The position numbers were made by a program, and so were the translations under genes. A stretch of DNA of 64,000 bases, taken from Eledone cirrhosa. Its lineage: Eukaryota. Each line of letters opens with the position of its first letter. Within the stretch, counting starts at the first letter, position 1. The stretch lies in assembly GCA_964016885.1 (NCBI GenBank), contig OZ024764.1:16678001-16742000 (forward strand), given 5' to 3'. A model generated the notes under the pieces. The model had not been told where the DNA came from. It did not search any database and saw only the letters and a list, made by a program, of their open reading frames with translations. This document shows positions 5,805 to 51,157 of the stretch, in pieces.

Positions 5805-5970
5805 CAAGAACATTAAATTCAAACCCAGACACAACAGATTCCTACAAAAACTCCGTAGCAAATTAACAGAGTATGAAAACACCAACGACATCATGGTGCA
5901 CTCAAACAAAACTCCCAGAAATATCCGTCGAAACGGCTTGAGCTCTGCCGTCGGGGTCATACTTGTTCCT
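5805..5970 (+). mobile_element. Penelope-like element fragment
   Basis: Translates KNIKFKPRHNRFLQKLRSKLTEYENTNDIMVHSNKT, resembling the region before the DK(T/G) motif of PLE ORFs (recalled). Fused to GAAACGGC..GCCGTC, a hammerhead stem III also seen at ~5020 and ~33950. Confidence 0.5.
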
Positions 5971-5994
5971 ATATATATCATCCTCATCATCATC

Positions 5995-6345
5995 ATCATC
6001 ATCGTTTAACGTCCATCTTCCACGCTAGCATGGGTTTGGACGGGAATTGTCCCACTTGAGGCAAGATTCGTTGTCTTGCTCATATAGGACTGTCTGGCGG
6101 GTTTTCTATGGCTGGATGCCCTTCCTAACACCAACCACGTTTACAGTGTGGGGCTGGGAGGTTTTTACCGTGTTACCTACACGGCCACATTTACAGTCTG
6201 GACTGGGAGCTTTTTTTGTTGTGACACCTACACGACCTCATTTATTTAGCACTGGATGTTGTGGTACCAACATAACTTTACATCGAAAGGGGTGGTGTGG
6301 ATGGGGTGGGGTAGTGGGACGAGGGGGGAGGGGTATATTTTGGTT
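5995..6345. mobile_element. Dispersed SINE/LINE-tail family with (CAT)n end
   Basis: GCTGGATGCCCTTCCTAACACCAACCAC..TTTACAGTGTG core. Copies at ~34835-35125, 60280-60725, 62420-62780 (inverted), 54500-54680. Confidence 0.75.
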
Positions 6346-32769: not shown

Positions 32770-32897
32770 AAAGTTATATTTAAATTGTTGGGTTACAACT
32801 AGTAAATATTTATAACTGATATATAAGCACTCGACAAATATTTGGAGTATATTTACAATATTAAATAAATGGAAACTATATTTATAAAACCATATTT

Positions 32898-32961
32898 ATT
32901 TCATTATATATATTTCAGGGATATCATATTAACAATATGCTATGCCTTCCTCAGACAAAAT
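32898..32961 (-). ncRNA. Hammerhead ribozyme, family A, mirror copy
   Basis: Reverse complement of 33086-33149. Confidence 0.8.
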
Positions 32962-33085
32962 ACAATATAAACAGTTTTATAGATAAATAGATTCGACATA
33001 CCGTAACAACATCAACCTTTTCAAATACAAGTCGATGTTGTTACGGTATGTCGAATCTATTTATCTATAAAACTGTTTATATTGT

Positions 33086-33149
33086 ATTTTGTCTGAGGAA
33101 GGCATAGCATATTGTTAATATGATATCCCTGAAATATATATAATGAAAT
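33086..33149 (+). ncRNA. Hammerhead ribozyme, family A
   Basis: AUUUUGU / CUGAGGA / AGG..CCU / GAAA / UAUAU-AUA / AUGAAAU. Confidence 0.8.
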
Positions 33150-33543
33150 AAATATGGTTTTATAAATATAGTTTCCATTTATTTAATATTGTATATATAT
33201 ATATATATATATATATCGTTTCTGAATTTGTTTAGCAAGATTCCTTATCTGAAATCGTGTGTTGAAACCGATATTGTTATACTTTGGGAGGGTCATGTTG
33301 CCAATAAGAAACACACGCACCAGTTGCTTTCACTCCAATTTATTATAAATTTTAAAAAACTTTTGAAAAAATTTTTTGAAAAAATTTTTTTTTATTTATA
33401 ATAAATTGGAGTGAAAGCAACTGGTGCGTGTGTTTCTTATTGGCAACATGACTCTCCCAAAGTATAACAATATTTATATATATATATATATATATATATA
33501 GTGACGAAACAAGTCAATTGCATGAACTCATAATCCTTTATTT

Positions 33544-33599
33544 ACTGCTATATATATTTCGATGATAGCCATTGAATGGCTATGACCTTATCAGGCAGT
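33544..33599 (-). ncRNA. Hammerhead ribozyme, family B, core-mutated (CUGAUAA)
   Basis: Stem I ACUGC/GCAGU and stem II AUAGCCA/UGGCUAU retained. G8>A change is predicted to inactivate it. Confidence 0.65.
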
Positions 33600-33658
33600 T
33601 AGTCAGTTCTTAGATATGCCAGCTCTGTGTTTATAGTGTTGATGGTATCAGAGCCTTG

Positions 33659-33689
<31 letters not shown>

Positions 33690-33989
33690 ACAAAGGAAAA
33701 GTGGTAAGGAACCAGGTGGACCATAACGCACCAAAGTACTCAATACTTAGGGTAGTAGAGTGGGTAATAGGAACAAGTAAGACCCCGACGGCTGAGCTCA
33801 AGCCGTTTCGACGGCTAATTCTGGACTGAATGAAAATTTATTCTGGTATTTAAATAGCCAAGCTTATCAAGGGGTAATATGGAATTACCCCTTGATAAGC
33901 TTGGTATTTAAATACCAGAATAAATTTTCATTCAGGCCAGAATTAGCCGTCGAAACGGCTTGAGCTCAGCCGTCGGGGTCTTACTTGTT

Positions 33990-34026
<37 letters not shown>

Positions 34027-48615: not shown

Positions 48616-49337
48616 GTGAGTAGATGTGAGAGGTCATTATTTTGAAGGAAGCAAAGTTTTTTAAGCTTATGAAAATTATAATGTCTCTTCTAAAACCAGT
48701 TAAAGAATAAAAAACTAACAAATCTTTACTGCCTTGAAAAGCACAAGATCTGTGAAACTGGTAAAGGAAACATAAATATTCTTAAAAAGACTCCAGTTGC
48801 ATTTTCAATTTCTTTTCCTTATACTTTCACTTGTGTAAGACAATCAGTTCCTGTATGAGCAAGACAAGGTCAGTTGACTGGACAACCCGTCTAACCCATG
48901 CTAGCGTGGAAGAACAGACGTAAAACGGTGATGATATATATATATATATATGGCACCTTCCTGTTTCACCTGATTAACTACGCTGTTCACCTCTACTTTC
49001 ATTGTTTGACCCCTTCCCCTATTTTTTGCTTCAATGCAATTATTTTGTTAATTCTAATTAGTAAACAATAAAATTTATTAATTCAAACAGTTAAGATATA
49101 AATAATAACTTATTGGAGATGAAGATTCTTGTTTTTTTTTCTCATTCTCTTCCACTGGAGAGTATATATATATATATATATATATATTTTGAGTATATGT
49201 TGGTTGTTTACCGACACCTCAGTATGCAGATTGGAGCACTCGACGAAGTACGCAGGTTGGTTTGGTTACTCCGGAGTAATGTAAAATAAAGTAATTAAGT
49301 CAAATATTTAAGATTTGGCTTCGTTTATTAAAGATGT

Positions 49338-49392
49338 ACTGCTATATATATTTCGGTGACAGCCATCATTGGCTGTGACCTCTTCAGGCAGT
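49338..49392 (-). ncRNA. Type I minimal hammerhead ribozyme, family B, mirror copy
   Basis: Reverse complement of 49529-49583. Confidence 0.85.
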
Positions 49393-49528
49393 TCGAATTG
49401 GTGTGGTAGAGACAGGTACACATGTTGTTGAAGTGTTTTACTCTGTCAATACTCCGATATGTCCATACTCCTGGACAGAGTAAAACACTTTAACAACATG
49501 TGTACCTGTCTCTACCACACCAATTCGA

Positions 49529-49583
49529 ACTGCCTGAAGAGGTCACAGCCAATGATGGCTGTCACCGAAATATATATAGCAGT
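49529..49583 (+). ncRNA. Type I minimal hammerhead ribozyme, family B
   Basis: ACUGC / CUGAAGA / stem II GGU-cACAGCCA-auga-UGGCUGUc-ACC / GAAA / UAUAU-AUA / GCAGU. Predicted cleavage after 49578. Confidence 0.85.
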
Positions 49584-49747
49584 ACATCTTTAATAAACTA
49601 AGCCAAATCTTAAATATTTGACTTAATTACTTTATTATATATATATATACAAATATATATATATATATTTACATATATATACACAAAGAGAGAGACACAC
49701 GTGTGTTGTTTTCCAGTTATTTCCTTACAACCACAGACCAATTATGG

Positions 49748-49957
49748 TCAATTGTTGAACTTCATAGAAAATATTTTGGCAATTCTGCAAGCTTCTTCTT
49801 GTGATGGAGGGCAATGGTAATTCTGCGGCTGTTTTTGGCTGTTTCTGTTGAATCCTGTTACCCCAGATGGTTGGTCAGTATGTGGCTTGGACAGCTTACT
49901 GAGCAGGTCTTTCCTGGCTTCCATCTTGCTTTCCTGTCGAGCTGGGTCTAATGTCTC
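49748..49957 (-). CDS. C2CD3: C2CD3 terminal coding exon (ETLDPARQ...SQEEACRIAKIFSMKFNN*)
   Basis: tttcag| acceptor, phase 0, TGA at 49750-49748. EEACRIAKIFS matches the conserved C2CD3 C-terminal EE.LRIARIFS motif (recalled). Confidence 0.9.
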   Translation of the reverse strand, partial: ETLDPARQESKMEARKDLLSKLSKPHTDQPSGVTGFNRNSQKQPQNYHCPPSQEEACRIAKIFSMKFNN

Positions 49958-50325
49958 CTGAAATTTAAGACCAAATAAATGAGAAATCTGTGAAGATCCT
50001 GTTTTTATCTACCCCCAACCCCCATCAACACTACCCCACCCTCATCAACACTACTCCTACATCACCTCTCACTATATATACTACTATAGGTATGTGTGTA
50101 TATATATACACATACATATATATCGTTAAAGGTAATTCGATAAGAGGTTGTGAAAACTACTTATCATGGATAGTTTAATTCTATCATAGAAACAATTGTT
50201 AGACTGTAAATAAATTTCCTTGTTTGTACTGTTGACCATGTTATTTCTCACTTTTTCAATTTTATATATATATATATATTTATACGATATTAATAAATGG
50301 AAACTATATTTATTTCATTATACAT

Positions 50326-50388
50326 ATTTCATTATACATATTTCAGGGATACCAAATTAAATTATGGTATGCTTTCATCAGACAAAAT
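50326..50388 (-). ncRNA. Hammerhead ribozyme, family A, mirror copy
   Basis: Near-exact reverse complement of 50507-50569 with CUGAUGA and GAAA intact. Confidence 0.75.
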
Positions 50389-50506
50389 ACAATATATAAC
50401 AGTTTTACAAATAAGCTTTGACGTACCCTTTTAAAATGCGACCATTATTTTTGGAAGCCATCTGGATAGTTTGTCAAAGCTTATTTGTAAAACTGTTATA
50501 TATTGT

Positions 50507-50569
50507 ATTTTGTCTGATGAAGGCATACCATAATTTAATTTGGTATCCCTGAAATATGTATAATGAAAT
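50507..50569 (+). ncRNA. Type I minimal hammerhead ribozyme, family A
   Basis: AUUUUGU / CUGAUGA / AGG-c-AUACCA..UGGUAU-c-CCU / GAAA / UAUGU-AUA / AUGAAAU. Confidence 0.8.
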
Positions 50570-50698
50570 AAATATGGTTTTATAAATATAGTTTCCATTT
50601 ATTAATATCGTATATCTACTCCAAATACTTGTCGAGTGCTTTATATCAGTTATAAAAATATTTACTTGTTGTATCCCAACAATTTTAAATAGAACTTT

Positions 50699-50743
<45 letters not shown>

Positions 50744-50918
50744 TTGTTTTGCAAGGTTTTTGATATGAAATCATGTGTCGAAACAAATATTGTTATACTT
50801 GGGGAGGGTCATATTGTTGTAATAATATTGCCAGAAATAATAACAGAACACACTCACTGTGAGTGTGTTCTGTTATTAATTCTGGCAATATTACAACAAT
50901 ATGACCCTCCCCAAGTAT

Positions 50919-50958
<40 letters not shown>

Positions 50959-51157
50959 ATAATAATGAAAATATTGTGTACAGTGCTCAGGTGCACTACA
51001 ACTCATCAAAAGTGTATGTATAGTATGTATATACATATACACATACACATATATATATATATATATATTTGTGTGTAGATGTGAGAGGTCATTATTTTGA
51101 AGGCGGTAAAGTTTTGTAAGCTATGAAAATTTAGTTAAAGAATAACAACTGATTCAC

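Follow-up and report, generated by a model that had tools for sequence, protein, structure and literature searches.

Penelope-like retroelements of the Hydra clade, which includes Hydra-1_Obim from Octopus bimaculoides as well as Penelope-13_HM, are diagnosed by the protein motifs DKT, RWK, CxCX5C, CxxC and CxH (Craig et al. 2021, PMC8557442, section 11), and in the supplement of that paper Penelope-13_HM is listed as having hammerheads on both strands. The combination of an inverted copy and a one-sided tail has already been published (PMC8557442, PMC3846280), and opposite-strand hammerhead pairs lying 100-700 bp apart have been tied to truncated Penelope-like elements (Cervera and De la Pena 2014, PMC4209133). 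We describe an insert beside the stop codon of C2CD3 in Eledone cirrhosa that we interpret, with a probability of about 0.92, as a head-to-head pair of 5'-truncated tail ends from a Hydra-clade Penelope-like retroelement, lying within a (TA)n tract and likely produced in one insertion event. The hammerhead sequence is unlike the one listed for Hydra-1_Obim, which makes this a separate family. The family was not found in the papers searched, and the insertion itself is an ordinary one; a literature search by title and start of abstract, with Repbase and subscription journals uncovered, returned no paper on this Hydra-clade family or on the C2CD3 locus.

The window is the whole stretch of DNA analyzed, 64,000 nucleotides of contig OZ024764.1 (assembly GCA_964016885.1, positions 16,678,001 to 16,742,000), and all coordinates are positions within it unless a locus is named. 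Listed from the last C2CD3 exon downstream, the features are as follows.

49748-49956, minus strand: last coding exon of C2CD3 (from the translation, the fish C-terminus and a spliced contig)
49637-49680, no strand: (TA)n-rich target sequence on the stop-codon side (sequence)
49474-49636, plus strand: short arm, an inverted, 5'-truncated pseudo-LTR without tail (matches reference positions 360-518)
49631-49636, minus strand: AATAAA from the antisense of the short end, a candidate poly(A) signal (sequence)
49529-49583, plus strand: short-arm hammerhead of type I, running antisense to C2CD3 and predicted to be cut after 49578 (sequence motif)
49282-49474, minus strand: pseudo-LTR part of the long arm, 5'-truncated and including the 26-nt spacer (matches reference positions 338 onward)
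49338-49392, minus strand: long-arm hammerhead of type I, running sense to C2CD3 and predicted to be cut after 49343 (sequence motif)
49324-49329, minus strand: AATAAA after the long-arm hammerhead (family feature)
49187-49281, minus strand: 95-nt tail, on the long arm only (common to other copies; layout as in locus L045)
49163-49186, no strand: (TA)12 target sequence on the side away from the stop codon (sequence)
49074-49079, minus strand: AATAAA in unique sequence beyond the insertion, the candidate original C2CD3 poly(A) signal (sequence)

The preliminary description, made without database searches, had named the gene C2CD3, and this identification is borne out by protein matches of an exon and by fish C-termini that align in register. 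The upstream exon at 57352-57576 matches 11 proteins, six of which carry the C2CD3 name from a source, and 49816-49754 gives a weak but in-register alignment to the C-termini of two fish C2CD3 proteins (E = 0.37 and 1.8). Leads from a protein atlas for the C2CD3 exon were C2-type and stayed under 0.9. The stop codon is the TGA at 49750-49748, and the intron at 49957-51156 is removed, as a contig of run X4 joins 51157 to 49956. The penultimate exon, on the minus strand from 51157 to about 53800, is very large and of low complexity, with a 901-aa open frame that contains runs of P, T, D/G and N. The 5' part of this exon matches protein P0004, and splicing connects its 3' end to the last exon. 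At two single-copy coding positions, 49891 (A>T) and 51390 (G>A), both X1 and X4 disagree with the window, through either alleles or assembly errors.

The inverted repeat begins 111 nt beyond the TGA. Its arms (49279-49447 and 49474-49642) show 98% complementarity, and the cleanest stretch pairs 49285-49447 with 49474-49636 over 163 bp with two mismatches (49322/49599 and 49430/49491), in agreement with the near-perfect arms of about 164 bp, some 110 nt after the TGA, that had been reported. The limits first proposed for the palindrome (49285-49636) had to be redrawn. In comparison with other copies, the minus-strand copy extends 95 nt past that boundary, down to 49187, and the 26-nt "spacer" of the palindrome is element sequence, namely the unpaired 5' part of the minus-strand copy. 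The whole insert spans 49187-49636 (450 bp) and its two arms are asymmetric, with different 3' ends: the short arm stops 3 nt before the "short" end of the family (reference position 521), and the long arm carries the tail, which in full-length copies leads into an open reading frame (ORF) with an ATG 56 nt past the tail end. Both ends of the insert are flanked by (TA)n, with a (TA)n-rich tract on the stop-codon side and (TA)12 at the opposite end, and no target duplication is discernible.

The arm is a young dispersed repeat, with full-length matches that are 97-100% identical (1751 candidates, 40 scored), and its 49-nt ribozyme motif has 433 exact copies in the genome compared to none for the reversed control. 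Long copies (L045, L041 and L035) run into a broken ORF with reverse transcriptase motifs (YRDD) followed by a GIY-YIG-like domain. L045, which is 96.7% identical to the window over 307 nt, is nearly complete and follows the arrangement already published, consisting of an inverted copy, a pseudo-LTR with tail, the ORF, a 3' region, a 3' pseudo-LTR with tail and (TA)n; its pseudo-LTR lies on both sides of the ORF (1569-1816 of the locus recurs at 5917-6164, 96% identical), giving a repeat unit of about 4.3 kb. None of the long copies fetched was seen to have an intact ORF. A SINE-like repeat occurs at varying spots in the AT-rich 3' region of L004, L016, L023 and L030, about 400-600 nt upstream of the arm. 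L035 (G000:C1:40902500-40912400) is an 8-kb insertion with short and long ends facing outward and two internal ORF pieces head to head.

Together, the ORF pieces contain RWR, DKT, YRDD, CxCX5C, CxxC before E and CxH after N. DKT, in place of DKG, was found in L045 and RWR in L035; RWR, a variant of RWK, is also present in the homologues P0001-P0003. The Hydra linker and endonuclease motifs read CNCRNPALC, CKLC before E and CRH after N, and CCHH is absent by eye. The ORF aligns over its full length with three intact homologues of 701-806 aa, its layout agrees by eye with the published Hydra alignment, and a GIY-YIG match (PF01541, E = 0.006) falls under the curated cut-off. Pfam returned no reverse transcriptase domain in the ORF pieces or in P0001-P0003, and a PDB search of the reverse transcriptase pieces gave chance matches that we set aside. 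Insertion into (TA)n, a Hydra trait, is seen at both flanks here and at most outer ends among the fetched loci. Motifs, the three homologues and the by-eye alignment comparison, rather than a tree, thus point to a reverse transcriptase and a probable place in the Hydra clade.

The paired layout recurs. We used 62 of 76 fetched loci, having dropped ten repeats of one place, three apparent segmental duplicates and one flank without the element. Outward-facing pairs of ends, read by hand, were present in 38 of the 62, a sample of best matches or first exact matches on one contig whose fractions should not be read as genome-wide rates. Thirty-seven of these pairs combine a long (tailed) with a short (tail-less) end, one is short+short and none is long+long; L007, L009 and L020 have common flanks, possibly as a single event. 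No such pair is seen in the remaining 24 loci, partly since the 5' end falls outside the fetched flank. By eye, seven outward-facing pairs within 2 kb were found among the first 100 exact motif matches listed. A hammerhead core is present in both arms of 13 of the 38 pairs, ten of which, including the C2CD3 locus, lie within 600 bp. Because the motif sits about 100 nt from the short end, any longer arm carries one, which accounts for a hammerhead in each arm; the hammerheads are passengers of the insertion. Arm-to-arm identity exceeded that to the best other arm in 7 of the 13 double-hammerhead pairs, too weak a signal to assign both arms to one RNA, and both arms at the C2CD3 locus have the same minority allele, a recurring CpG-type change.

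The 5' ends of the hammerhead arms (L047-L076, with L036 as reference and a 615-nt query) are concentrated at a near-palindromic site some 120 nt upstream of the core, with 9 of 27 at 291-295 and 13 of 27 at 291-306, compared to 2 of 27 within 15 nt of the core. RNA synthesis could start at this site or pause there, or the two cDNAs could anneal there.

How such an insert might form can be outlined by analogy with a Poseidon-clade element of the anole studied in vitro (PMC11167929). The element endonuclease would cut both strands of a (TA)n tract, reverse transcription would start at two internal RNA sites bracketing the tail, with one cDNA primed from each cut strand, and both cDNAs would stop early and have their truncated ends joined head to head. 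An older proposal is self-priming on an antisense template (PMC3846280). In seven loci the long partner is tail sequence alone; because the tail is missing from the short arm, a tail-only long partner cannot be a fold-back copy of it. These partners favor two primings over self-priming, a choice on which the C2CD3 locus alone is silent. The near-strict pairing of a tailed with a tail-less end (37 of 38), together with the tail-only partners, provides genomic support in the Hydra clade for two reverse transcription starts per insertion, and the 95-nt tail separates the two putative start sites well.

Two other origins for the palindrome have to be weighed against a Penelope-like insertion. It might be an artefact of assembly or of library fold-back, as no listed read or contig crosses its center. 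However, the arms differ at two sites, the tail is on one arm only, both ends are standard end points of the family, and the long+short layout is common to 37 loci with the C2CD3 locus among them; single-copy contigs also approach the (TA)n tracts from both sides, although X1 may be the assembly's own sample. The reduced-representation DNA run X21 lacks coverage of the unique flanks and is therefore silent on presence/absence polymorphism of the insert. Since the asymmetry is typical of the family, we consider an artefact most improbable. The insert is also short and non-coding, with inverted ends and a hammerhead, as might be expected of a MITE-like DNA transposon with terminal inverted repeats or of a stand-alone tandem retrozyme. 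Against either stand outer ends that are fixed while arm lengths and inner junctions differ between copies, arms that are the 3' end of an element encoding reverse transcriptase, and the lack of head-to-tail arrays of a short unit in the 62 loci, so that an origin of this type is barely conceivable. The C2CD3-adjacent locus is instead ordinary transposon debris. Because such a palindrome is the standard product of Penelope-like insertion and occurs at many genomic sites, a locus-specific design is unnecessary.

An intact type I hammerhead had been claimed on each strand, and this was only partly upheld. The motifs are identical in both arms and have a conserved core (CUGAAGA and GAAA), an AUA cleavage triplet, a stem I of five pairs and a stem II of nine pairs with one C-C mismatch and G10.1-C11.1, so that the core, stems I and II and the cleavage triplet expected of the type are all present. 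Stem III comprises two A-U pairs around a palindromic AUAU loop, with folding energies of +4.7 kcal/mol as a monomer hairpin and -3.2 kcal/mol as a dimer. The motif accordingly lacks a stable monomer stem III and fits a dimer-type variant. Rfam gave no match of any family at the gathering score in the whole window, and no hammerhead match at E<=10 in 49150-49760; the matches it did return at E<=10 were hairpin look-alikes, for example miRNA models, far under their gathering scores, and were attributed to the long stem. The AATAAA encoded after the hammerhead is a feature of the family; among the fetched loci, 78 of 84 hammerheads have it within 25 nt of their 3' end.

Further repeats of this kind are present in the window. 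Two palindromes with hammerhead motifs on both strands belong to a second family. One, at 50281-50614 (tail to about 50700), is inside the last C2CD3 intron, and the other is at 32848-33199, with its tail to the left. In both, the tail is one-sided, measures about 90 nt and contains a 10-nt motif also present in the first-family tail. Single hammerhead motifs related to the second family occur on the minus strand at 32604-32556, 41525-41475 and 6567-6519, and the first family has a diverged relative (about 74%) at 33470-33600. Short palindromes of further repeat families adjoin (TA)n at 50787-50926, 33271-33473 and 33767-33994.

What the insert does to the C2CD3 message depends on where that message ends. 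The insertion may have shortened the 3' UTR by supplying the AATAAA at 49636-49631, with the mature message ending near 49615 and leaving the hairpin out, and we give this tentative reading slightly less than an even chance. This AATAAA is the first after the stop codon and has U-rich sequence behind it, although chance alone could account for three AATAAA in 847 nt (1.46 expected, P=0.17). The sole spliced contig (X4, depth 10.6) covers 49713-49956 plus 22 more letters and so stops near 49691-49713, before the element; X4 depth is about 10 on the last exon and nil over the unique sequence at 48932-49119, where the DNA run X1 has 8-9. This coverage leans toward a message that terminates where the element begins or inside it, with the AATAAA at 49636 as one candidate site. 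However, contigs of X4 cannot show RNA ends, 49623-49712 and 49125-49200 are repeat-masked, and a long hairpin can drop out of cDNA and could thereby hide read-through. It is possible, if somewhat doubtful, that the message instead continues as far as the AATAAA at 49079, or farther, and includes a 163-bp hairpin that ADAR would edit, as a passenger effect. The AATAAA at 49079 lies in unique sequence and, prior to the insertion, would have preceded any other such signal, the adjoining exon is transcribed, and the hairpin is predicted to be very stable. Long duplexes in animals undergo editing, and coleoid cephalopods edit heavily. Set against read-through are the nil X4 depth over unique sequence past the element and an X4 change spectrum in which T>C (8 places) and A>G (13) do not rise above G>A (14) and C>T (6), a comparison of little power with many paralogous copies pooled; the DNA run X1 has 15, 14, 17 and 16 places in the same order.

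Should the message read through, the antisense arm would come first and the sense hammerhead after it. The preliminary description had foreseen that the hairpin would compete with the ribozyme fold. That geometry stands, and in folding predictions the hairpin wins (MFE of -338.6 kcal/mol for the full palindrome compared to -258.9 kcal/mol with hammerhead stems I and II enforced); what had been missed is that the palindrome is a standard Penelope-like insertion product. A message cut by the sense hammerhead at 49343 often enough to regulate C2CD3 is very unlikely. The core is intact, as are stems I and II, and the sense arm alone is predicted to form the two stems with probabilities of 0.80 and 0.96. 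In the full palindrome their probability becomes negligible, stem III is unstable as a monomer, and only one sense copy is present, which leaves no dimer in cis. Related motifs showed no monomer cleavage and low dimer cleavage (PMC4209133), and the anole motif needed its protein and had no RNA ends at its cut site (PMC11167929). The hairpin fold, the single sense copy and the weakness of these related motifs are what make cleavage of the message improbable. With a dimer-type motif, one sense copy and an antisense arm that is made earlier and would pair with it, the sense ribozyme is predicted to be inactive in the C2CD3 transcript. An extremely improbable elaboration is that the message reads through, ADAR editing loosens the hairpin and the freed hammerhead, helped by a copy in trans or by the element protein, removes the poly(A) tail. 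If true, this would be an editing-gated ribozyme switch on a centriole gene, the chance product of one insertion and repeatable wherever such palindromes enter transcripts.

The insert 111 nt past a stop codon offers an easy test case for a shift of poly(A) site by insertion. More broadly, insertions of this type are ready-made long hairpins at many genomic sites, and those that lie in transcripts are candidate substrates for editing or for small RNA production.

Animal non-LTR retrozymes (bioRxiv 10.64898/2026.07.22.740005) resemble this insert in having a type I hammerhead derived from Penelope pseudo-LTRs. However, they are head-to-tail tandem units, whereas the insert is a head-to-head pair from a family that encodes reverse transcriptase; we rejected identity with them because of that pair and because no short tandem arrays were present among the loci examined. 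The minimal, small-helix-III hammerheads of metazoans (PMC4209133) share with ours a long helix II, a short helix I and a small palindromic helix III suited to dimers. Compared to the hammerhead pairs reported there, the pair at C2CD3, known from sequence, is distinguished by adjoining a host stop codon.

Of the described systems, the Hydra clade (Craig et al. 2021, PMC8557442) has the most in common with the insert and its parent element, including a C-terminal GIY-YIG-type domain, DKT, the CxCX5C linker, CxxC and CxH in the protein, a hammerhead near the 3' end, (TA)n targets, an inverted 5'-truncated copy and a tail at one end. The family differs from the clade as published in having RWR rather than RWK, a tail of 95 nt rather than 30-40 bp, a unit of about 4.3 kb where less than 3 kb is typical, and a shorter stem III compared to the Hydra hammerheads listed. 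Poseidon from the green anole (Frangieh et al. 2024, PMC11167929) belongs to another clade, and its ORF starts inside the hammerhead, whereas the first ATG here is downstream of the tail. However, two reverse transcription starts bracket its tail, both strands of the target are cut and extended, and its targets are AT-rich, a behavior that fits the rule of one long and one short end seen in the family described here.
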